Below, piece by piece: positions 2,113 through 62,108 of a stretch of 64,000 nt of DNA. Position numbers and translations under genes: made by a program. Source of the stretch: Octopus vulgaris (taxonomy: Eukaryota); NCBI GenBank assembly GCA_951406725.2, contig OX597830.1, positions 36,208,001 through 36,272,000 of the forward strand, read 5' to 3'. Numbering within the stretch: the first letter of the stretch is position 1; the number at the start of each line of letters is the position of its first letter. The notes under the pieces are model-generated. The model had not been told where the DNA came from. It worked only from the letters and a program-made list of their open reading frames with translations, and did not search any database.

Positions 2113-2718
2113 GAAAAAAGTAAGTAAATAAATTATTGACCTGGTTATTTCAGACTATTGGTGAGACTTGAACATAATGACAGTACCATTAGAATGGAAC
2201 GTATGTGACACAATCATCGCCATCTTGGTAAGATATATTTTGACCAAAGCCACGCTGACAATGCAACAATACTTTCTGAACTAAACAAGCTAAAACTTAG
2301 TCCATATTCTACTTTGCATACGTTGGTTTCTATCTTATAACACACTATATATATATATATATATGTCTGCGTCTGCAGGGCTGATTGCTTGCGTTGGGAT
2401 CTGTAATTTATTCCCTTTACAATGTTATCGTTGTTTATTCAAATAATTGTTCCTCCCACCAGAATACAGCTGACTGAAAACCAGCGTTGATTCTGACAGT
2501 TGGAGTTATTCTGTACTCACTGAAAACACTGTAACAGTACACACTTTCTAATGATGCCATTCACGAAGTTCTAAAGTCGTTCAAAGTTTTGATGTTGTAA
2601 TTGGAAATGTGTTATTTATATAAGGAGCTAAAATTGCTTATATTTTAGTCAAAAGATTAAGACGGATGCAAGACTCCATAAAGTTAAAGTGGGGGTATTA
2701 TAAAGAATTAATATATAA

Positions 2719-3150
2719 AGGTGGTGAGCTGGCAGAAATGTTACCACGCCGGACGAAATGCTTAGCGGTATTTCGTCTACTGCTACGTTCTGAGTTCAAA
2801 TTCCACCGAGGTCGACTTTGCCTTTCATCCTTTCGGGGTCGATTAAATAAGTACCAGTTACGCACTGGGGTCGATGTAATCGACTTCATCCGTTTGTCTG
2901 TCCTTGTTTGTCTCCTCTATGTTTAGTCGTTTGTGGGCAATAAAGAAATAAGAAACGTGAACAGGCCGGGCGAAATGCTTAGCGGTATTTCGTCTGACTT
3001 TAAGTTCTGAGTTCAAATTCCACCGAGGTCGACATTACCTTTTATCCTTTCTGGGTCGATAAATTAAGTATCACTTGCATACAGGGGTCGATCTAATCGA
3101 CTGGTGCCCACTCTCTAAAAATTTCGGGCCCTTTGCCTAGAGTAGAAAAG
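2719..3150 (+). mobile_element. SINE family B tandem pair (unit with tail X, then 5'-clipped unit with tail Y)
   Basis: tRNA-like head (gagctggcagaa...gagttcaaattcc), central gtcgactttgcctttcatcctttcggggtcgat...aagtacc resembling the Meta/MESC SINE domain as I recall it; second unit starts at 2952; flanked by aatatat(a/g)aag at 2710-2720 and 3151-3161. Confidence 0.85.
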
Positions 3151-3230
3151 AATATATGAAGTGCTTACCCAATATATGAATTAATCGTTAAATGAAACCT
3201 CAATTTTCTTGAATCTTTTATTCCAAACCA

Positions 3231-3436
3231 TTCTTTTATTTTTTTTTTACTTGTTTTAGTCATTTGACTGCGGCCATGCTGGAGTACCACCTTGAAGTAT
3301 TTTAGTTGAACAAATCAACTCCAGGACTTTTTTTAAAGCTTAATACTTATTCTATTCTTCTCTTTTGCCGAGCCGCTAAGTTACGGAAAAATAAACACAC
3401 CAACACCACTTGTCAAGTGGCGAAACACAAAGATAC

Positions 3437-3468
<32 letters not shown>

Positions 3469-3617
3469 GACTGGCTTCTTTTAGATTCCATCCACCAGAT
3501 TCACTCACAAGGCTTTGGTCAGTCTGAGGCTATAGTAAAAGACATTTGCCCAAGTTGCCGCACAGTGGGACTGAACCCGGAAATATGTGGTTGGGAAGCA
3601 AGTTTCTTATCACACAG
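3231..3617 (-). mobile_element. SINE family A, near full length
   Basis: Colinear with 32824-33221; internal (TA)n. Confidence 0.85.
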
Positions 3618-3642
3618 TAAAATTAACCCATAAAAACTACAA

Positions 3643-6528: not shown

Positions 6529-6685
6529 TGAGTTCTTTCCGTTTTCCCTTTCCGTTTAGCAAATCCACTCACTGCGTTTTTATCGTCCCGATGTTATAGT
6601 AGAAGACACCTACCTAAAGTGTTACGCAGTGGTATTGAACCTGGAACCGTGTGACTGGGAAGCCAACTTCTTACCACACAGCCTC
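6529..6685 (-). mobile_element. SINE family A, 5' half
   Basis: caaatccactcac...tagtagaagacac...cttaccacacagcc. Confidence 0.75.
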
Positions 6686-16621: not shown

Positions 16622-16820
16622 ATAAATTTTTGGCACAAGAGCAACAAGTTCAGAGAAGGGGATGAGTCGATCACATTGACTCTAATGCTCGAGTGGTACT
16701 TATTTTATGGACTCCGAAAGGATAAAAGGTAAAGTCGACCTCGGCGGAATTTGAACTCAGAACGTAAAGAAGTACGAAATACTGCTAAGTATTGTACCCC
16801 TGCGTGCTAACGTTTCTGCC
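16622..16820 (-). mobile_element. SINE family B (tail Z)
   Basis: aaggtaaagtcgacctcggcggaatttgaactcagaacgt. Confidence 0.8.
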
Positions 16821-16853
16821 TTAATTCACAATGAAATATTAAAGAAGGGACGT

Positions 16854-17306
16854 GGCAGCGATCTGGCTGAATCGTTAGCACGCCGGGCAAAATGCTCAGT
16901 GGTATTTCGTCTGCCGTTACGTTCTGAGTTCAAATTCCGCCGAGGTCGACTTCACCTTTCATCCTTTCAGGGTCGATAAATTAAGTACCAGTTACGCACT
17001 GGGGTCGATGTAATCAACTTAATCCGTTTGTCTGTCCTTGTTTGTCCCCTCTATGTTTAGCCCCTTGTAGGGAATAAAGAAATATGAATCGTTAGCACGC
17101 CGGGCAAAATGCTTGGTGGCATTTTGTCCGTCTTTAGTCTGAGTTCAAATGCTGCTGAGGTCAACTTTCCCTTTTTCATCCTCCTTTTCGGAGTCGATAA
17201 AATAAGTACCAGTCATGTACTGAGGGGAGGAGGGAGGTCAACGTAATTGACTTACCCCCTTCCCACCCTGCGAACTTGCTGGCCTTGTGCAAAAACTTGA
17301 AACCAA
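16854..17306 (+). mobile_element. SINE family B tandem pair (unit with tail X, then 5'-clipped unit with tail Z)
   Basis: Same layout as 2719-3150; second unit starts at 17086 (gaatcgttagc). Confidence 0.85.
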
Positions 17307-19573: not shown

Positions 19574-19958
19574 TGGGGGAATGCGCTGTTACAGCAAGTC
19601 GCTGCATACACTATTTGTTGGTGATTCCCTAGTACACCTGCTGGCAGGTTACACCTTTACACCACTCAGGTGACATCCTTCCGGTTCATGGATCTGTTCA
19701 GGTAGTCGGAGCTGCTACGAAAGTTCTACGAAGTCGTAGTGCAAATCTTACCTCAACTACTTTTAGTCACTTATGACGACATGCAACGGTAACGTTGGGT
19801 CTATTCTTTGACATGCCGATCCCCACACAGCTATCGTGGGTTTCGCGTTTTTCTTCATTTTTGCCGGTCAAGTGACACAAAGAGTAGCCTCCATTCACTG
19901 GTTAAATCATTATTGCTAAAGATATTAGTCTAATGCAAACTCTTATACAAATTCAGTA

Positions 19959-20054
19959 CCGTTCTACATTTAAGAGATGAGGAATTATGTAGTAGTTAAA
20001 AGTGTGGACTACTAACCCCAAGATTCCGAGTTCGATTCCAGACAGTGACTTAAA

Positions 20055-20117
<63 letters not shown>

Positions 20118-20118
20118 G

Positions 20119-20156
<38 letters not shown>

Positions 20157-20336
20157 TAATAATAATAATAATACACAACAACAACAACAACATCGAAAAA
20201 TACCTTAGGAATGAGAACCTAAGTTCCAAATTTCCCCAAGACACCTGATGAAGGCTGGGGGGTATATCAGCCGAAACGTTGTGTTAAAAACAAACAAGAT
20301 GAGGACAAACATCCGTCAAATGTAAATAATGTAAAT
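19959..20336 (+). mobile_element. SINE family C copy 1: inverted 3'-tail piece, 5'-clipped tRNA head, (ATT)n(AAT)n, hammerhead tail
   Basis: B box gagttcgattcc; 10-bp TSD aaattcagta at 19949-19958 and 20337-20346; homologous to 23886-24556 and 35133-35468. Confidence 0.85.
20240..20285 (+). ncRNA. minimal type I hammerhead ribozyme motif (Penelope type)
   Basis: Stem I GACAC/GUGUU; core CUGAUGA plus one extra A; stem II GGCUG/CAGCC; GAAA; palindromic ACGU in place of stem III; predicted cleavage after GUU (20280). Confidence 0.8.
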
Positions 20337-20362
20337 AAATTCAGTAGTATATATTATTAACA

Positions 20363-20594: not shown

Positions 20595-20809
20595 AATAAT
20601 CCTTTCTGCAATAGGCACAAGGCCTGAAATTCGGAGATGAGGACTAATCGATCAGATCGAACCCAGTGTTTCACTGGTACTTATTTCATCGACCACGAAA
20701 GAATGAAAGGCAAAGCTGACCCCGGCGGAATTTGAACTCAGAACGTATGGGCGAAATACTGCTAAGCATTTCGTCCAGTGTACTGACGATTTTGCCAGTT
20801 CACCACCTT
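20595..20809 (-). mobile_element. SINE family B (tail Y)
   Basis: aatcctttctgcaataggcacaaggcctgaaatt...ggcggaatttgaactcagaacg...gccagttcaccacctt. Confidence 0.8.
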
Positions 20810-20983
20810 TATGATTTCAATAATAACAGAAAAATCCTTTCTTTGCCATATTTGGTAACTTTTTTACCAAATATGTAGTGTCATCTAATCCTATGAAATT
20901 AAAAGTCAATTTCCTTCTCTCTACCTCTCTCTCACCATTTCTTTCTATTTTCTTTCTCTCTCTCCCTCTCCTCCTCCCCTCTT

Positions 20984-21197: not shown

Positions 21198-21416
21198 AAA
21201 GCGACGAGATGGCAAAAACATTAGCACGCCGGGCGAAATGCTTTGCGGTATTGGGTCTGCCGCTACGTTCTGAGTTCAAATTCTGCAGAGATCGACTTTG
21301 CCTTTCATCCTTTCGAGTTCGATAAATTAAGTATCATCGAAACACTGGGGTCGATATAATCGCCTAGCCCCAGCCCCAAAAATTTTCAAGGCCGTGTGCC
21401 TAGAGTAGAGATAATT
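21198..21416 (+). mobile_element. SINE family B (tail Y)
   Basis: Head ttagcacgccgggcgaaatgc, Meta-like core, tail ggccgtgtgcctagagtag. Confidence 0.85.
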
Positions 21417-21529
21417 ATGTGGGGTTCATTTTGAATCCCGAAAGACAATACAAATGTTTTAAAGCTTTGAAAACTCTTCGTGTTGCTGTTGTTGCTATTA
21501 CTCGTATTGTGATTACTATTTGCAATTTG

Positions 21530-22607: not shown

Positions 22608-23728
22608 CATCATCATCATCATTCCTATATTACTTCTAACGACCGGTCTGTATAATTATAGCTTCGTCAGGTCTCGTCGGTGTGTGCTCACACTGAAACC
22701 GGTCTCAAGCCATCACAAAAACATGGAGAGAGAATATGAGAGCGAAGAAATGAGATGGTTGGTGGAATGAAGAACTAAGGTCAATTTGAATGAGGATTTT
22801 TTCTTCTCACGAAAGAAACCGTGATGCAAAATCTGATTACGATAAGAACGCGACTTATATATAAACTCGACTACTAATGCTAGCCATTCTGTCCCTCGGC
22901 ATGCCTTCACCAAACAGCATTTCGGCCCTCCTCTTTCTTTCTCATTCTATTTAATACGCTTTCTCTCTCTTCTTTATCTCTCTCTATCTCTATCTTTATG
23001 CCTTGCTTCTGTTCATTTCTCTTTCTACTTACTTCTCTTTTTAACTCACTGTTTCTCCTTCCCTCTCTTGTCTCTCTCTCTCTCTCTCTCAATCTATCTA
23101 TCTATCTAATATTCACCTGCCCATCCTCTTTATTTTTCTCTTTTGTTTTATGCAACGTTTTCGATACGCACCGTTAAAACTATATGGATTAGATCTTCGA
23201 CAACGAATTCCTAATTTATGAGTTCTGTTTCACATCAGACTTTTCCTTTCTATACCAGACATACTTCTGTTAAATATCACTTCGTTATCCTTTGTTACCA
23301 AAAACACTCCTCGTTTCATTTAGCTTCTAATCCTGGCGGCGAATGCCTATCTTTTTCTTGCCTGCACCAGGTCAGCTATGGAGTTTGAAGCAGGTACCGA
23401 CAATCAGCAACACTCTCCTAATTTTATGTCAACGTAGTGATTCGACTTGCTAGAAATACCAACCAAATCTCTATCAAATTACTCCTCTACAATTTCCTTA
23501 GAACGTAAAATTTTACGTTCTAAGGAAATTAGATAACACAACTCTAGATTGTCGGCTTTTTTATTTTTGATTTTTTCCTACTTCGACGATATGGTCATGC
23601 CAAGAACGCCTTTGATGAATGATAAGTCTGTTCAATGAAAGCTTAACTGGAATTAAATAACAACAATTTAAGGTGTTTATCCAACTTAACTTTATTTTAA
23701 CCAATCTGTTTACAACATAGCAAATGTT

Positions 23729-23878
23729 GCTTTCAAATTTTAGCACAAGGCCAGCAATTTCGGGGGAGGGTGCAAGTCGATTATATCGATCATAGAGTCA
23801 ACTGGTGCGTATTTCATCGACCGTGAAAGGATGGAAAAAAGGATGCTATGTTTAGCCCCTTGTGGGCAATAAAGAAAT
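23729..23878 (-). mobile_element. SINE family B 3' half (minus strand) plus a short plus-strand tail-X fragment
   Basis: tttcaaattttagcacaaggccagc...; ctatgtttagccccttgtgggcaataaagaaata at about 23846-23879. Confidence 0.65.
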
Positions 23879-23885
23879 ATAATAT

Positions 23886-24057
23886 CCTTCTATATTTAAG
23901 AGATGAGGAATTATGTACATTATTTACATTTGACGGATATTTTCCTCATCTTGTTTGTTGTTAACACAACGTTTCGGCTGATATACCCTCAAGCCTTCAT
24001 AAGGTGTTTTGGGGAAATTTCGAACTTGGGTTCTCATTCCTAAGGTATTTTTCGATG

Positions 24058-24148
<91 letters not shown>

Positions 24149-24216
24149 CATTATTATTATTATTATTATTATTATTGTTATTCAGGACACTGCCTGGAAT
24201 CGAACTCGGAATCTTG
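23886..24216 (-). mobile_element. SINE family C copy 2 (inverted, 5'-truncated, retains the ~30-nt 3' extension)
   Basis: Reverse complement of copy 1 body; hammerhead motif 23963-24008 has mutated core CUUAUGA. Confidence 0.85.
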
Positions 24217-24227
24217 CCCACGGGCAT

Positions 24228-24556
<329 letters not shown>

Positions 24557-24574
24557 ATAATATATACTTAATAT

Positions 24575-25012
24575 CGGTCTCAAATTTTGGTACAATGCCA
24601 GCTATTTCGAGGAGGGGTTTAGTCGATGACATTGATCCCAGAGTTCAACTGCTACTTATTTTATCGATCCCGAAAAGACGAAAGGCAAAGTCGACTTTGG
24701 CAGCGTTTGAACTCAAAACGTAGAGTAGGAAAAATAACGCTAAGCATTTCATCCAACATATTAACGATTGAACCAGCGTGATAATAGTAAAATAATGGTT
24801 TCCAGTTTTAGCACAAGGCCATCAATTTGGTTAAAATGCTAAGTCGGTAACATTGATCCTAGTACTCAATTGGTACTTCTTTCATTGCTCTTTGAAAAAG
24901 AACAAAGGCAAAGTCGATCGCAGCGAAATTTGAACTCAGATCGTGGAAAGACAGAAGAAATTACTCTAAGCATTTTGTGCGACGCGCTAACCGTTCTGCC
25001 AGCTCACTTGCT
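24575..25012 (-). mobile_element. two tandem SINE family B copies (about 24575-24780 and 24796-25012)
   Basis: Each has tail Z, aaggcaaagtcga core and tttgaactca B box on the minus strand. Confidence 0.75.
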
Positions 25013-26845: not shown

Positions 26846-27305
26846 TTGTTTCGAAGTATGGCACAAGGCTGGTAATTTTGAGAGGAGGGGGAGCTTGTTG
26901 ATTACATCGACCTCAGTAATTGGCTGGTATTTTATGTTGTCAACCCCGAAAAAATTTAATGGGAAGGTTAACCTCGGTGGGATTTGAGTTTAACATATAT
27001 GGAGCCGAAATAGATGCCATTAAACATTTAATCCGACGCGCTGACGATTTTACCATCTCGCCGTCATAATAATAATGATAATAATAATGATAATAATTCT
27101 TTCTACAATTCGCACATGGCCTGAAATTTTGCGACAGGAGGCAGGTCGATTACATCGACCCCCGTAGTCTACTGGTACCTATTTTATTGACCCCGAAAAG
27201 ATGGAAATATAGTCAACCTCGGCTGGATTTGAGCTCAGAATGCAAAGATGGAAATACCGCTAAGCATTTTACCCGGTGTGCTAATGTTCCGCCAGCTCGC
27301 CGCCT
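26846..27305 (-). mobile_element. two tandem SINE family B copies (about 26846-27066 and 27096-27305)
   Basis: Family B core and head on the minus strand, separated by (AAT)n. Confidence 0.75.
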
Positions 27306-27314
27306 CACCACCTT

Positions 27315-27369
<55 letters not shown>

Positions 27370-27370
27370 G

Positions 27371-27810
27371 TATTTATTGATTGACACGAGTATTCCTTGC
27401 GATCACAATATAGCGGCAAAAGAATTTGACAAGATCAATAAATATAAAGACTTGCTAATAGAAATTGGAAGAATGTGGCATCACAAGGCGACTACAGTAC
27501 CAGTGATCGTAGGATATCTGGGAATGATAAAAAAAAATGGTACTGAAACCGATTTGAAAATGATACCAGGCTTACCATCCCTACAGGAAGTGCAAAAAAT
27601 CGTGTTAAGTGGAACGATTCATGTACTGAGAAGAGTATTATCGCTGTGAAAATAACATCCATTCATGAATTTATTTATTTAAATACATAATTTACCTGTG
27701 AATTTGCGTGTGTAATCTGGGAATGCATTCAATGAACTTCTCTGCCCTAGTTATACGGAAAGCACTCGGCAAGAAACGGAAGCAAATTTGAAGAAAGAAG
27801 GAAAAAAAAC
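27371..27810 (+). mobile_element. Dong/R4-clade non-LTR retrotransposon, 5'-truncated 3' fragment
   Basis: Translation YLLIDTSIPCDHNIAAKEFDKINKYKDLLIEIGRMW...VPVIVGYLG...LQEVQKIVLSGTIHVLRRVLSL* matches the C-terminal restriction-like endonuclease region of R4/Dong; flanked by (AAT)n on both sides, the known Dong target. Confidence 0.85.
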
Positions 27811-27821
27811 AATAATAATAA

Positions 27822-28190
27822 TCCTTTCTACTATAGGCACAAGGCCTGGAATTTTGGGGGAGGGGACAAGTCGATTACATCTACCCCAGTGTATCACTGG
27901 TAGTTAATTTATCGATCACGAAAACATGAAAGACAAAGTCGACCTCGGCGGTTTTTGAACTCAGAACGTAAAGACCGGCGCAATGATGCTAAGTGTTTTT
28001 CCCGGTGCGCTAACGATTCTGCCAGCTCGCTGCCTTGGCATCTTTATAATAATGGTTTCAAATTTTGCCACAAGGGCAACAATTTTGGGGGAGGGGATGA
28101 GTCGATTACACCGACCCCAGTTTTCAACTGGTACTTACTTTTATCGACCACGAAAAGATGAAAAGCAAAGTCGACCTCGGCAGAATTTGT
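27822..28190 (-). mobile_element. two tandem SINE family B copies (27822-28037 tail Y; about 28052-28190 tail Z, partial)
   Basis: cctttctactataggcacaaggcc...gattctgccagctcgctgcctt; ggtttcaaattttgccacaagg... Confidence 0.8.
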
Positions 28191-32823: not shown

Positions 32824-33221
32824 TTTTACTCTTTTACTCTTTTATTTGTTTCAGTCATTTGACTGCGGCCATGCTGGAGCACCGCCTTTAGTCGAGCAAC
32901 TCGACCCCGGGACTTATTCTTTTGTAAGCCCAGTACTTATTCTATCGGTCTCTTTTGACGAACCGCTAAGTGACGGGGACCTAAACACACCAGCATCGGT
33001 TGTCAAGCAATGCTAGGGGGACAAACACAGACACACAAACATACACGCACATATATACGACGGGCTTCTTTCAGTTTCCGTCTACCAAATCCACTCACAA
33101 GGCATTGGTCGACCCGGGGCTATAGTAGAAGACACTTTCCCAAGATGCCACGCAGTGGGACTGAACCCGGAACCATGTGGTTGGTTAGCAAGCTACTTAC
33201 CACACAGCCACTCCTGCGCCT
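32824..33221 (-). mobile_element. SINE family A, full-length reference copy
   Basis: Head aggcgcaggagtggctgtgtggtaag...ggttccgggttcagtccc (A and B boxes), short internal CA/TA slot, (AAAAGAGT)n tail. Confidence 0.9.
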
Positions 33222-33259
33222 AAAGGAATTTGAATAAATCTCAAGAAACACACACACAC

Positions 33260-33861: not shown

Positions 33862-34070
33862 TAATCCTTTCTGTTATAATAACATTTTGTGGGAGGTGGA
33901 CAGTCCATCCTATCGACCCCAGTACTCAACTGGTACTTAATTTATCGACCCCAAAAGGATGAAAGGTAAAGTCGACCTGCGCGGAATTTGAACTGAGAAC
34001 GTAACGACCGGTCGAAATACCGCTGAGCATTTCGTCCAGGGGGCTAAAGATTCTGCCAGCTCGCCACCTT
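33862..34070 (-). mobile_element. SINE family B with ~19-bp TSD
   Basis: agctggccactaa(c/t)ataat on both sides; empty site visible in the paralogous segment at about 32641-32660. Confidence 0.85.
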
Positions 34071-34336
34071 AGCTGGCCACTAATATAATGACAACGCTTC
34101 TTTGTTAGAGTGAATACAGTTCCAAGATTTGCGAATACATCAGCGCTATTTAATGAAATAACTGACACAGATCAATTTTGAATATGGATTTATGTCGGTT
34201 TACACGTTAGCTAGCTCCTGTTTTAATATGTGGTTGTATGTGTGATGGAAGTGGCTTTCAAATAAGACCTGTAAATGTCTCTATAACTCTACCAGTTTGT
34301 GTGTGAGTGAGATTACCTTTTTGTTAAATATATATT

Positions 34337-34937
<601 letters not shown>

Positions 34938-35132
34938 AACAATGCATAAATTATGTATAAATCTATAATTGTATGATGTACGCAAACGGAATGACGCTTG
35001 TATGTTAATTGTAGGAAATTCGTATGCTGAACATTCATAATGTTTCGCATAACTTCACTGTGACACTGATTGATTGTATTCGAATAATGACATTTATTTC
35101 ACTCCGGTCTTTATTAGTGAGTTTCAGTATTT

Positions 35133-35210
35133 ATGGCATAGTGCTTAATGGCGCGGGCTACTAACCCCAAGATTCCGAGTTTGATTCTAGGCAGTAACCT
35201 AAATAATGAT

Positions 35211-35294
<84 letters not shown>

Positions 35295-35468
35295 GATAAT
35301 AACAATAATAATAATAATAACATTGAAAAATACCTTCGGAATGAGAACCCAGGTTCGAAATTTCCCCAAGACACCTGATGAAGGATGGAGGGTATATCAT
35401 CCGAAACATTGTGTTAACGAGAAACAAAATGAGGACAAATATACGTCAATTGTAAATAATGTAAATAA
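35133..35468 (+). mobile_element. SINE family C copy 4, full head
   Basis: atggcatagtgcttaatggcgcgggctactaaccccaagattccgagtttgattc tRNA-like head; (AAT)n; possible TSD tttcag. Confidence 0.85.
35370..35415 (+). ncRNA. minimal type I hammerhead ribozyme motif
   Basis: Stem I GACAC/GUGUU, CUGAUGA-A, stem II GGAUG/CAUCC (compensatory change), GAAACAUU. Confidence 0.7.
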
Positions 35469-35517
35469 TTTCAGGGTTGTGTTATCCTTTTCGTAAATCC
35501 TAGCCCAATGTACCTAA

Positions 35518-36228: not shown

Positions 36229-36505
36229 GACTATCATTATTATTATTATTATCATCATCATCATCATTGTTGTTGTTTTTGTTGTGGCTGTTGCTGTTAT
36301 GACTTTGCCTTTCATCCTTTGTGTCGATAAAGTAAGTACAAGTCGAGCACTAGGGTCAATGTAATCGATTGACCCCCTCCTCCAAAATTGCTGGCCTGGT
36401 GCAAACATTTGAAACCATTATTATTATTATTTTTGTTGTTGTTGTTGTTATTGTTATTGCCATTATTATTATCATCATCACTATCGTTGCTAGTATTATT
36501 ATTTC

Positions 36506-38986: not shown

Positions 38987-39539
38987 GAAAATGAGAGAGA
39001 TGAGAAAACATCATACATAGAAATACAACAGACCATTTAAATACCATATCCATTGGAAATCGCCTCGGATTTTCAGGTGAAGACTACCTGGGACTGTTTC
39101 AGAATGTACACTTTATCAGATAGGCAGGATCTACAGTTTTACCAAGTCTCTTCACCAAAGTGTGAACTGTGCAGAGGTATTTACTTGTCTTAATATATAA
39201 AGTAATATCTATGAAGTTAATTATCGTTAGGCTGATAATAATAATAATAATTACATTTATACTAAAATCTTCTAATGTATTTATGAAGTCGTTCTTGTAT
39301 TTATTCATGGCGTAGCTGTTCTTTTGCATGATATTGTCAGTCTACTTATCCCTGCATAATCCTGGAATATGAGGTGGGGTTCTCTTACTGAGGTTATCAA
39401 GGATAAGCAATTTCACGAATTCAGACACTGCCTTTGCGTCGTCATAGATTCCAATGCAAACGTTGAACAGTGTATCTCCTTTCTAGTTGACCCAGTAGGA
39501 ATCGTTATGAAATGAAATTCTTTGGGTGTTCATCATTTA

Positions 39540-39648
39540 ATCGGCCCGGGGCTAGAGCAAAAGATATTTGCTACAAGGTACCACGCAGTGGGACTGGAGC
39601 CAGACGCATGTGGTTCGGAAGCAAACTACTTGCCATAGACATACGCCT
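39540..39648 (-). mobile_element. SINE family A head fragment
   Basis: tcggcccggggcta...ccacgcagtgggactg...catgtggtt. Confidence 0.7.
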
Positions 39649-47350: not shown

Positions 47351-47591
47351 TAACACACCAACATCAGCTGTCAAGCGATGATGGGTGAACAAACACAGGC
47401 ACACAAACAAATACAAACATACATACATATATATATATATACGACGGGCTTCTTTCAAATCCACTCACAAGGCTTTGGTCGGTTTGAGGCTATAGTAAAA
47501 GACACTTACCTAAGGTGCTACGAAGTGGGACTGAACCCGGAAACATGTGGTTGGGAAGCAAGCTTCTTACCACACAGTCATTCCTGCGCCT
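47351..47591 (-). mobile_element. SINE family A, 5' two-thirds
   Basis: Colinear with 32980-33221. Confidence 0.85.
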
Positions 47592-48404
47592 AAGTTAGTA
47601 GATAATTTTATTCTGAAAAGCGATTTTAATAAAGTGTATCCATTCTCTCCTTGCCGCACCCTTTTCATGCTATTTAACACCCCTTAAGGGTACAGGTATT
47701 CAAAGATGCGAAACTCTGCCTTAGACAATGCAATCCACTTTACATCCAAAAAGACGACACGGTTATGGCAGAATATATTTGATTACATATATCTGCTTGA
47801 TTGAGGTTGACCTAGTGTTAAACAGCAACAACAACTTCTGTTAAAATATTTGCGGGTTTTATTATTATTTTTTTTTTGATTCGCTTTGTGTAAAAGTCTA
47901 AAGAAGTCATTTTACTTTTCTTTTCCTTTCTTTATCTATTGTTAGGAAAACACTTCAGTTTATAAACAGAAATTTCTATTATTTCGTTTCGTTTTTCTTC
48001 TTTCTCTTTTTAGCTTTCATTTACAACAGACGTTTGAGCTAATAGATTTTAATGGTGTTGTCAATTATCTCTATTATCGTTATTAATCAAAACCTATGAA
48101 AGAACTGATATTAAAAGAAAAAAACAGAAACCCACTCCACACTAACTCTACGGTGTTGCTATTTCATCAGAAAAGCGTTTGATTGACATATGTATTATTA
48201 ACGGTTCTCTGTTGCAAAATCTCCTGGGTTTCTGAAATTTTGGTTCTTTAAACAAATCAAGTTTAATAAAATTCAGCCTGGGTTTTGTCTAGGGCATTTT
48301 CTTCGAAAATTCTCATGAAAACTCAATTTGCAACAAAGTAATCTAAAAAGGATTGTTTCGGAAGGGGTTAAATAAAAACTCTATGCATCAATTTCTCTCT
48401 GTCC

Positions 48405-49371: not shown

Positions 49372-49568
49372 TCTTCTTTTATTCTTTTATTCTTTTACTT
49401 GTTTCACTCATTTGACTACGGCCATGCTGGAGCACTGCCTTTAGTCGAACAAATCGAACCCAGGATTTATTATTTTCTACGATAAGCCTAGTACTTATTC
49501 TATTGCTCACTTTAGCCGCCATCGGTTGTCAAGCGATGGTGGGGTGACAAACAAAGACACACAAATAC

Positions 49569-49666
<98 letters not shown>

Positions 49667-49793
49667 TCAAGAGGTCTTCGTTGACCCGTGGCTACAGTAG
49701 AAGACACTTACCCAACGTGCCACGCATTGAGACTGAACCCGGAACCTTGTAGAGGGGAAGCAAATTTCTTACCATACAACCACTCCTACGCCT
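49372..49793 (-). mobile_element. SINE family A with internal deletions and (TA)n
   Basis: Tail ttttacttgtttcactcatttgactacggccatgctggagc; head ccactcctacgcct. Confidence 0.8.
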
Positions 49794-49845
49794 ATAAAAG
49801 CTTACTAGCCTGCCATGGGCAAAGAGAGACAGACAGAAAGAGTGC

Positions 49846-54501: not shown

Positions 54502-55058
54502 CGAGGGTGAGTCAAAAACTAATGCCATTTTGGTTAGGCAGGTATAATTACCAACACAGGAACATGTATCATACATCAAAATGAAGCTGGTCTTCTGTGT
54601 ATCACATCCTTTCTTTTGAACATAGCCACCGTTTCTCTCAATAGCAATGTCCCACCTTCGAATGAGACCATGTATCCCTGTCCCGTTAAATTCTGTTGAC
54701 TGTTCTCTGAGCCACTTCTTCACTAGTTTTCACTTCCTCGTCACCGGAATAATTTAGCGCCTTCAGGCTATCATCTCTGCGGCTCCATGAAAGAGGGTTT
54801 GAGAGGCAAACATTATTCCAGTGACAAGGAAGTGAAGACTGTAGGGAAGAAGTGGCTCAAAGAACAGTCAACAGAATTTTACGGGGCAGGGATACATGCT
54901 CGCATTCGAAGGCGGAACACTGCTATCGAGAGAAACGGCGACTATGTTGAGAAGTAGGATATGTTCCACAGATGACCAGCTTCATTTTGATGTATGTTCC
55001 TGTGTTGGTAATTATATCTGTCCTAAACAAAATGGCATTACTTTTTGACTCATCCTCG
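54502..55058. mobile_element. mariner-derived foldback element built from two 3' ends (~250-bp arms)
   Basis: TA flanks; termini cgagggtgagtcaaaaa / tttttgactcatcctcg; 54754-54957 translates LAPSGYHLCGSMKEGLRGKHYSSDKEVK...KWLKEQSTEFY...RNGDYVEK*, a mariner transposase C-terminus. Confidence 0.9.
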
Positions 55059-60256: not shown

Positions 60257-61021
60257 CTCTGTTTCCTTCCCTCTGCCCCTACATCTCTCTTTTCTTCCCA
60301 CGTGACCGGTGTTCTGCTAAGCATGATCTTTCTTTCTTGGCCTGACCACCGCCCATACATTATCTTATTTTCCTCAAGGCTTTCACTCTACTCGCCAGCT
60401 CAACTTGATTCGTACTTATTAGTCGAAAGACACCTGTTGTTATTCTCTTGTTGTTTGTATTTGTAAACGTGTAACATCTCCATTTTTACGTTTTCTTTTT
60501 TTTTTTTGTCTCTGTTGTCGTACACATTCCCTTGTTTTCTTCCAAAAGTTCAATGCTCTTAGCTTAGACTTTTGGGGCCAACCGATTTTGAACAGTCTCA
60601 ACTGTAACAAGCCGAAACTGTAATGATAACTGGAAACTTGACTGATGAATAGAAGGCCATGAATTATCAATCCTTGTTTTTCCCTGTCCGTCTTTGTATT
60701 GGCTATCTGTCCGTATGTTTTTATTGTCGTCCGTTACGTTCTTATTCCATTTTGGCGATTTATATATATATGTGTGTAAACAAATATATGTATATATATG
60801 TAAATGCATGTATATGAATATATGTATATGAATATATATATACATATACACATATATATACATATGTACATACATATAAACACACAGTAACTCGTATCTA
60901 CTTTGTACACTGAATGATATTTATTTCTCACTGGATGGGGTACATTTTTTGCTTAACATTTCTTCCTTAAGGGAACAGTAAACTCTGTGTGAGTGTCTGT
61001 GTGCGTCTGTGTGTGTTTAAA

Positions 61022-61615
61022 TTATGGAGAAATTAGTCATAATTTTAGACCGATAGAATAAGTACTGGGCTTACAAAGAATAAGTCCCGGGGTCGATTTG
61101 CTCGACTAAAGGTGGTGCTCCAGCATGACCGCAGTCAAATGACTGAAACAAGTAAAAGAGTAAAAGAGAGTATAATTAAAGGAATTATGTTTGTTAGTGT
61201 TGTTACTGCTTCTGTTGTTCTCCGTCATAATCTTCTCCGTTCGTAGATGTATCACTTTCCCCCTGTCTTTTCCTTGCATGAATTTCTCATGCAAAAGTCT
61301 CTTGCTATTAAATTTCTCATGTTTTTGTTTGGAAACAAATATATGTATATATATATTTGTGTGGAAACAAATATATGTATATATATGTAAATGTATATAT
61401 ATGAATATATATATATATACACATATATATATGTTACAAACATAATTCCTTTATTTATACTCTCTTTTACTCTTTTACTCTTTTACTTGTTTCAGTCATT
61501 TGACTGCGGCCATGCTGGAGCACCATATTTAGTCGAGCAAATCGACCACGGGACTTATTCTTTGTAAGCCCAGTCCTTATTCTATCGGTCTAAAATTATG
61601 ACTAATTTTCCATAA
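61022..61615. repeat. inverted repeat with ~175-bp arms (61022-61194 and 61436-61615), each containing a SINE A 3' fragment plus unique flanks
   Basis: Arms are reverse complements including the non-SINE sequence on both sides of the fragment. Confidence 0.9.
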
Positions 61616-62108
61616 ATTTTTGTTTGTTATAGCTTTATCGGAGTCCGATCAACGTTAAGCGATTCCTTCTGATTTGCAGCGCTAGCAAAACTAACCGTAT
61701 TACATCCACAACTAAGACGTGTTTTTTTTTTTTTACAATTATTTTCCTCAAAGTGACTGTCTTCTGGTGCAATTATTACTATTTTACTGTTCAACTTATT
61801 GTTTGATAATTTATTGCAGGACTGCTGGTTGTCACCTTCTTCTCTCATCACTTCAGGGAAGACCGTCCTTCCAAAAGTTTTCATTTTAACATTGTCTGAT
61901 TAGAAACATGATCCTCACAAAATATAAATAATCTTCCGTTTAAAATGGAACAAAGAGAGGTTTTGTCCCTTCTCTTAACAAGTAAGCAATAGCAACTAAA
62001 CAAAACACACAACAAAAACAAAACAGAAAAACAATTCGGAAAGGGGCCTGGCAATTTTACAAACAATCTCCCGCGCTAGTTAACCCACGTTTTTCACTGG
62101 TAACTCCA

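Follow-up and report, generated by a model that had tools for sequence, protein, structure and literature searches.

A SINE-like Octopus retroposon with insertion footprints of the Penelope-like kind

Family C, a repeat that occurs as four copies in three insertions within the 64,000-nucleotide stretch of Octopus vulgaris DNA analysed here (the window), is quite likely a non-coding, SINE-like Octopus retroposon of ~340-380 nt that carries a pLTR-type 3' part of Penelope-like elements (PLEs) and is mobilised in trans by a Penelope-like reverse transcriptase (RT) and GIY-YIG endonuclease. The copies share a layout of head, (AAT)n-type middle and ~147-nt conserved 3' part. The insertions match those of PLEs in every structural feature tested; having no ORF, family C is not an autonomous PLE.

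Results

Structure of the insertions

The first insertion (insertion A) is enclosed by an exact target-site duplication and consists of a short inverted tail joined to a direct copy (copy 1):

19949-19958, no strand: left target-site duplication of insertion A, aaattcagta, 10 bp, exact
19959-19991, minus strand: inverted tail of insertion A, 33 nt, its sole inverted piece, placed by the reverse-complement match and the outer boundary
19989-19991: microhomology GTA, 3 nt, common to the inverted tail and the truncated head, located by contig loose ends
20337-20346, no strand: right target-site duplication of insertion A, aaattcagta, 10 bp, exact

A previous sequence-only reading had proposed that this decamer encloses the inverted piece together with the sense copy, and it does: aaattcagta occurs twice in the 64-kb window when both strands are scanned, permits no extension, and in both its copies directly adjoins the insertion ends, a 10-mer match that random junction pairs produce at a rate of 0.0001 (20,000 trials). 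Equally well founded was the claim that the inverted piece is the reverse complement of sequence lying beyond the point at which the sense copies stop: positions 19962-19991 agree at 29 of 30 bases with 23888-23917, the extension of minus-strand copy 2 beyond the stop point of the three sense copies, and ~2e-10 chance matches are expected in the window. This match holds, but the copy chosen for the comparison (23886-24216) is itself the inverted arm of another insertion. The piece had also been described as ~31 nt long from 19961; its inversion is confirmed, but its extent is not, as it starts at 19959, next to the duplication, and measures 33 nt.

In public contig sets (four runs, organisms A, C, D and E, aligned to 19580-20050), the outer end of the repeat lies at 19957 in all four runs, and the alignments start there rather than at 19959 because targets often end in TA. 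The copy 1 head loses ~19 nt at its 5' end and is joined to the tail via the 3-nt GTA overlap: in the contigs, loose ends of the head fall at 19989 and those of the tail at 19991, and loose ends at 19989-19990, which mark the truncated copy 1 head, occur in at least 133, at least 83 + 40 and at least 111 contigs in three runs.

The design of insertion A is repeated in a second insertion (insertion B), a case in the window that goes beyond the earlier reading, and a third insertion (insertion C) contains a direct copy:

23874-23885: left imperfect duplication of insertion B, exact over 7 bp (23879-23885), with 16 of 18 columns matching from 23868
23886-24216, minus strand: copy 2 of insertion B, inverted 5'-truncated arm bearing the tail (23886-23917)
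24215-24553, plus strand: copy 3 of insertion B, direct, tail-less
24553-24563: right imperfect duplication of insertion B
35132-35468, plus strand: copy 4 of insertion C, direct only, without tail and without inverted piece

Copies 2 and 3 stand head to head with a 2-nt overlap, the tail being at the outer end of copy 2, and their imperfect duplication of 11-18 bp has a chance of 0.13% overall and was equalled in 3 of 176 AT-rich pairs. Insertion C shows a possible 6-bp duplication (35122-35127 and 35469-35474) with 4 unassigned bases, the chance of such a 6-mer being ~1%. Within the 64-kb window, an inverted 5'-truncated copy lies next to the 5' end in two of the three insertions, and the tail sits on the inverted piece in two of three insertions and on none of the three direct ends. 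The exact flanking repeat of insertion A and the existence of a second insertion of the same design both uphold the view that the inverted piece and the sense copy form one insertion.

The hammerhead motif and the tail

The 3' part of family C carries a predicted type I hammerhead motif in the minimal form described for PLEs:

20240-20285, plus strand: copy 1 minimal type I hammerhead motif, predicted cut after 20280
23963-24008, minus strand: copy 2 hammerhead, core mutated
24462-24507, plus strand: copy 3 hammerhead motif
35370-35415, plus strand: copy 4 hammerhead motif

The motif is composed of a 5-bp helix I, CTGATGA, an unpaired A, a 6-bp helix II with a closing G-C pair, GAAA, a palindromic CG, TT and the 3' strand of helix I. 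It is intact in copies 1 and 3, and single core changes are present in copies 2 and 4. When expressed as a search pattern, it yields three matches in the window, all of them in family C (copy 2 is missed owing to its core change), and 0 in each of 100 shuffles. Across the four copies, 43 of 44 cells in helices I and II are paired and 2 changes are two-sided, a level of covariation that is not significant with four copies and is reached in 29 of 500 shuffles. In the available text of PMC4209133, the minimal hammerhead of metazoan pLTRs combines a short helix I with a long helix II and has a base between positions 9 and 10.1, a G10.1-C11.1 pair and a palindrome at 15.2-16.2; the family C motif shares with PLE minimal hammerheads an additional base ahead of helix II, a closing G-C pair and the palindrome at 15.2-16.2. 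The Rfam hammerhead models gave no match to the family C motif, and predicted folds of monomer and dimer did not produce the active hammerhead form.

The tail region folds back as a predicted 10-bp stem whose loop contains the end point of the direct copies. This stem has a predicted energy of -12.7 kcal/mol with the tail versus -3.9 kcal/mol for the same region without it, and the z-score for the fold of the whole 3' part is only -1.97.

A model for integration

The insertions had previously been ascribed to a PLE mechanism rather than to ordinary LINE target priming. The first half of this claim is sustained by four concordant features and the second insertion: in agreement with PLE-type integration, there is an optional tail of 30-40 nt preceded by a minimal hammerhead motif, an inverted 5' piece that bears this tail, and a duplication in an AT-rich target. 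The second half needs qualifying, as PLE integration is itself target-primed (PMC11167929), and the contrast between PLEs and LINEs is one of internal initiation and extension of both strands. Similarly, the earlier suggestion that tails at direct 3' ends would speak against a PLE mechanism is too strict, because PLE insertions are reported, in the available text of PMC8557442, to have the tail "at either end".

In vitro, the Anolis PLE protein introduces nicks into both strands of AT-rich DNA, extends them and initiates reverse transcription at two internal stem-loop sites downstream of the hammerhead, and the PLE tail is the stretch between these two start sites (PMC11167929). The parts of family C follow the same order as those of the Anolis PLE and, because of this order and the tail stem, we read each insertion that has an inverted piece as two cDNAs, one per target strand. 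We infer a promoter, an enzyme and an order of events that would together generate the observed geometry. A copy of full length would be transcribed, probably by Pol III via internal A and B boxes, and a PLE protein would bind the RNA in the region from the observed hammerhead motif to the tail, where a fold is predicted. The enzyme would then nick both strands of an AT-rich target ~10 nt apart, giving rise to the duplications that are observed. One nick would prime inside the RNA, before the tail, and yield the direct tail-less copy, and the other would prime at the tail end and yield an opposite-facing cDNA that includes the tail, both as suggested by PMC11167929. The two cDNAs would finally be joined via 2-3 nt of microhomology, matching the observed overlaps. 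In insertion A the second cDNA would have stopped after 33 nt; in insertion B it would have run on for ~330 nt.

In insertion A, the inner end of the tail lies within ~10 nt of the direct end point, where the direct cDNA would have begun, the exact offset depending on whether the master had two or three of the 9-nt repeats, both of which forms occur in contigs and translations. This single case suggests that one RNA was split between two primers. It is unlikely that insertion A instead once had a long inverted arm like that of insertion B, of which a later deletion spared the tail only, a possibility that would keep the PLE reading and forfeit the one-RNA detail; our estimate covers that detail, and overlaps our best explanation. 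Long inverted repeats are unstable, and both the 3-nt microhomology at the junction and the truncation of the direct head would fit a deletion, but a hairpin bypass should delete the two arms together rather than one, and a random deletion would rarely land with the inner tail end within ~10 nt of the direct end point.

Composition and origin of family C

Copies of family C are ~340 nt long and contain no RT or GIY-YIG ORF; their parts are illustrated here by copies 1 and 3:

19989-20053, plus strand: copy 1 tRNA-like head, with the B box at 20030-20038 and a 5' truncation that runs through the A box
20055-20190, plus strand: copy 1 microsatellite middle, (TTA)n at 20055-20117, (AAT)n at 20121-20172, (AAC)n to 20190
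20190-20336, plus strand: copy 1 conserved 3' part, pLTR-like, stopping tail-less after two 9-nt repeats
24215-24226, plus strand: copy 3 palindromic 5' cap, family sequence per public contigs
24229-24239, plus strand: copy 3 A box

From its sequence, family C appears similar to a tRNA-derived SINE in size, dispersal and layout, the tRNA origin itself being weak. Loose ends in the contigs indicate that a full head starts with a short palindromic cap. In copy 4, all 71 positions of the Rfam tRNA model align with the head, scoring 13.7 bits (E 1.6) against a cut-off of 29 bits, and the A box, an anticodon-like loop and the B box fall at tRNA spacing; the model does not match copies 1 and 3, and ARAGORN detected no tRNA in the 64-kb window. 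According to strict patterns drawn from general knowledge, the A box is kept in copy 3 and the B box in copies 1 and 2, both being present in no single copy. Family C is probably transcribed by Pol III from these boxes.

A quite unlikely alternative is that family C is a retrozyme-like or pLTR-derived non-autonomous element, still mobilised by PLEs, whose head merely resembles a tRNA and whose promoter is supplied by its flanks or by the pLTR. The weakness of the Rfam tRNA score, which would suit such an origin, has to be set against an alignment that covers 71 positions and places the boxes and the anticodon-like loop at tRNA spacing. The available texts report palindromic 5' ends for pLTRs (PMC3846280) and non-autonomous derivatives of PLEs (PMC8557442; bioRxiv 10.64898/2026.07.22.740005), and there is a related hammerhead family without the tRNA-like head, but the three insertions of family C are dispersed and form no head-to-tail arrays. 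The absence of a run of four T from all four copies counts weakly against the alternative.

The SINE-like passenger that we favour combines head and 3' part as a fixed unit: the two are linked in all four copies of the window and in one O. bimaculoides gene model (P0016). A one-off fusion between a SINE and a PLE was considered and rejected, given this linkage in four of four copies. Over 144 columns, the mean pairwise difference of the 3' parts is 0.096, which at the rate given in the available text of PMC13282606 corresponds to ~14 million years per copy if decay from one master was neutral. One reading frame is open through the whole 3' part of copies 3 and 4 (24409-24555 and 35317-35469), and it runs on through the tail in one database translation (P0001). 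Because the tail lies in the ORF start of PLEs, this open frame may derive from the N-terminus of the partner. A coding role for the frame was rejected, the translations being scattered, single-member and frameshifted.

The 63-nt (TTA)n of copy 1 is the reverse complement of the next repeat, (AAT)n, and is inverted relative to the other copies; this juxtaposition is the sole pattern match of its kind in the window, and may reflect a small fold-back in reverse transcription.

The mobilising enzyme

The enzymes that move family C are probably borrowed from Penelope-like elements and not from an ordinary LINE, as its structure would suggest. Mobilisation by an ordinary LINE, with the inversion arising from twin priming of the L1 type, is very unlikely. 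L1 also yields duplications, inversions and junction microhomology, which counts in favour of a LINE; in L1 twin priming, the inverted segment derives from sequence upstream of the direct one, and the RNA's 3' terminus remains at the direct 3' end. In family C, by contrast, the inverted segment is located downstream of where the direct copy ends, the two arms of insertion B duplicate each other, no copy ends in poly(A), and a hammerhead motif is present. The abundance of LINEs in O. vulgaris, as given in the available text of PMC13282606, is a further point on the side of a LINE.

In the search for an autonomous PLE partner, neither an RT nor a GIY-YIG domain was found in 37 of 96 profile-search translations that were scanned along with 2 further long matches, these 39 being the longest relatives. 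The reading frame of copy 3 retrieved no longer relative as a protein query; as a profile, it retrieved 2 short proteins in a first search and 96 representatives in a wider one, none of which exceeded 188 aa apart from two chance matches. The profile of the related hammerhead family retrieved 2 longer proteins, without a Pfam domain, and protein searches on the 3' part returned translated copies and the related short hammerhead family only.

Family C in contigs and protein collections

At its outer end (19957), the tail adjoins heterogeneous AT-rich sequence in at least 92, at least 62, at least 83 and at least 48 contigs of the four runs, with a flank agreement of 0.40-0.43 beyond that end; varied AT-rich sequence past the tail is what is expected of an insertion boundary. 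On its inner side, the tail runs into the 3' part in at least 55, at least 58 and at least 34 contigs of three runs. The summed depth of the tail bin is ~39,000 times (organism A) and ~40,000 times (organism C) that of the unique flank, a ratio that measures abundance and not copy number, and 0.57, 0.96, 0.47 and 0.12 times that of the head bin in the four runs. Both the contig and the peptide data are silent on the orientation of the tail within its insertion.

Based on contigs of the four runs aligned to 19580-20050, which includes the left but not the right flank, organisms A and C carry insertion A; near the insertion, contig cover of the flank is absent at 19836-19931 in organism D and at 19916-19931 in organism E. 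One contig each from organisms A and C extends from unique flank as far as 19987. This is 29 letters beyond the duplication, slightly short of the 31 letters by which a bridging contig was defined. The junction of flank and tail exists in a second species, and an assembly artefact is an unlikely source of it. That insertion A is an assembly artefact, or a tail piece and a sense copy that inserted independently, with the 10-mer repeated by chance, is hardly credible: no empty allele turned up (the insertion is present in A and C, and D and E have no cover near the site) and AT-rich 10-mers are not rare in such genomes, but the repeat directly adjoins both ends (rate 0.0001), the second insertion shares the design, and contigs of organism A, from a second study, and of organism C span the unique flank to 19987.

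The profile of the family C open frame identified an 80%-identical UniRef entry from Octopus bimaculoides that continues through the tail (P0001). Scores divided the 96 translations from the profile search into 36 that are family-C-like and 60 of the related family. After exclusion of 2 family-C-like translations that failed a core filter and 12 that ended too soon, 22 were informative, and the tail was continued in 5 of these, an undercount given that frameshifts hide the tail; one of the remaining 17, which lack it, is a spliced gene model. In the related hammerhead family, a homologous tail was found in 26 of 54 translations and head-to-tail units in 13 of 60.

This related family (P0005, P0007, P0008, P0039 and ~55 others, the five checked being ENA records) has the same hammerhead region, a homologous 33-nt tail, head-to-tail units of ~132 nt and a different upstream part, and looks like a retrozyme-like or pLTR-derived element on these features. 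P0016 (XP_052825882.1), a dystrobrevin-beta model of O. bimaculoides, starts with the family C head joined to the hammerhead region and continues with a host EF-hand exon; either exonisation or a gene-model artefact is possible. Searches of viral, prokaryotic genome and metagenome collections (the last with two patterns) gave no match to family C motifs.

Other repeats in the window

Two further repeat families were recorded:

2715-3160, 16630-17225, 20595-20826, 21205-21418, 24576-25008, 27092-28189, 33884-34073, 36301-36431: second SINE-like family
1295-1406, 3251-3618, 6560-6683, 32846-33223, 34805-34937, 39529-39635, 47456-47593, 49405-49794, 61019-61618: third repeat family

The second SINE-like family is older and more numerous, with 70-86% identity, and often occurs as inverted or clustered pairs; the third includes an inverted pair at 61019-61145 and 61493-61618. 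The left flank of insertion A contains worn fragments of another repeat (19600-19690 and 19738-19831), which have raised depth and common loose ends at 19831 in three contig runs. A perfect 40-nt palindrome lies at 23491-23530, ~350 nt upstream of insertion B, and an inverted repeat at 54502-55058 has 250-nt arms of 85% identity placed 58 nt apart. Among the 150 of 375 Rfam matches listed for the whole window, all were driven by microsatellites.

Discussion

The footprint alone is known PLE behaviour, and the less ordinary part is the tRNA-headed, SINE-like passenger with an end of the PLE type, which is a plausible new variant. Searches of the open-licence PMC and bioRxiv literature found no description of a tRNA-headed SINE mobilised by a PLE, and such an element is likewise undescribed in the available text of PMC13282606 (with its supplement), PMC8967140, PMC6685494, PMC8969392, PMC4758252 and PMC4824008. 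Family C may already have a name in repeat databases or in the 1994 octopus SINE paper. We regard it as evenly balanced whether family C represents a so far undescribed SINE, tRNA-headed and transcribed by Pol III, that exploits a Penelope-like element and not a LINE, in tens of thousands of copies and in several Octopus species.

If this is true, an internal promoter would free family C from the tandem arrangement that PLEs need for transcription, and tail-only inversions such as insertion A would record a "reverse twin-priming" in which the two target strands both prime on a single RNA, using the two initiation sites of PLEs. The SINE partners named in the literature examined are LINEs, a rule that a PLE partner would extend. 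In the portion of the PMC13282606 supplement available to us, unclassified SINEs account for 1,279 of the 1,317 SINE families of Octopus and 11.7% of the genome, and PLEs for 6.8%; a PLE partner would bear on why Octopus has many unclassified SINEs and many PLEs. The manner in which PLEs form inverted arms and tails is still undefined according to the available text of PMC8557442 and PMC11167929. Tens of thousands of copies, each of a size to fit a single long read, would allow the starts and stops of cDNAs to be counted without bench work, and a 350-nt passenger would define the minimal cis signal for PLE-driven insertion.

Comparison with known elements

The octopus SINE families OK, OR1 and OR2 were reportedly described by Ohshima and Okada in 1994, and family C is set beside them by description only, identity with one of them being possible. 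OR1 and OR2 are cited as CORE-SINEs in the available text of PMC4824008 and PMC4758252. Compared with tRNA-derived SINEs in general (SINE2), as far as these are treated in the available text of PMC4824008, family C has a weakly tRNA-like head with A and B boxes, an unrelated body, a 3' part that would be borrowed from a partner, a high copy number and duplications; it differs in having a 3' part of the PLE type instead of a LINE tail, no poly(A), and inverted 5' pieces.

The SINE-like schistosome elements SM-alpha and Sj-alpha are short and non-coding and combine a promoter of the Pol III type with a type I hammerhead, according to the available text of PMC6765202 and PMC8490949. Family C resembles them, so described, in being short and non-coding, in its putative Pol III-type promoter layout and in its type I hammerhead motif. 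The schistosome elements, in contrast, are mostly tandem, have the promoter at the 3' end of the cleaved monomer and a hammerhead that is active in vitro, and their descriptions mention neither a PLE tail nor an inverted-arm footprint in the text available from the same two papers.

Metazoan non-LTR retrozymes and other non-autonomous PLE derivatives, such as MRC1 of Chlamydomonas, are non-coding, related to pLTRs and proposed to use PLE enzymes (available text of bioRxiv 10.64898/2026.07.22.740005, PMC7229834, PMC7761336 and PMC8557442). Family C is like these retrozymes, as portrayed there, in that it is non-coding, bears a hammerhead motif and appears pLTR-related. Retrozymes are defined in that text as tandem repeats that give circular RNA, whereas family C is dispersed and tRNA-headed, with a minimal hammerhead: head-to-tail tandems were found in none of the three insertions of the window, and none of 34 family-C-like translations contains two stretches, a weak count given that an ORF would rarely span two units. 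The terms "tRNA" and "Pol III" do not occur in the available text of the retrozyme preprint (bioRxiv 10.64898/2026.07.22.740005).

Endonuclease-positive PLEs are described in the available text of PMC3846280, PMC8557442 and PMC11167929 as having an inverted 5'-truncated copy by the 5' end, a tail of 30-40 nt at one end, duplications of 8-10 bp and AT-rich targets and, with PMC4209133 added to these sources, a minimal hammerhead just upstream of the tail and a palindromic 5' end. Family C is unlike them in its lack of an RT/GIY-YIG ORF, its size of ~350 nt, its tRNA-like head and its microsatellite middle, and in having no partial head-to-tail tandem in three insertions. In all these footprint features, however, it is like the PLEs that the same sources describe, namely Penelope/Poseidon and Neptune, with Pen2a_Av of Adineta vaga and PAc of Anolis carolinensis.
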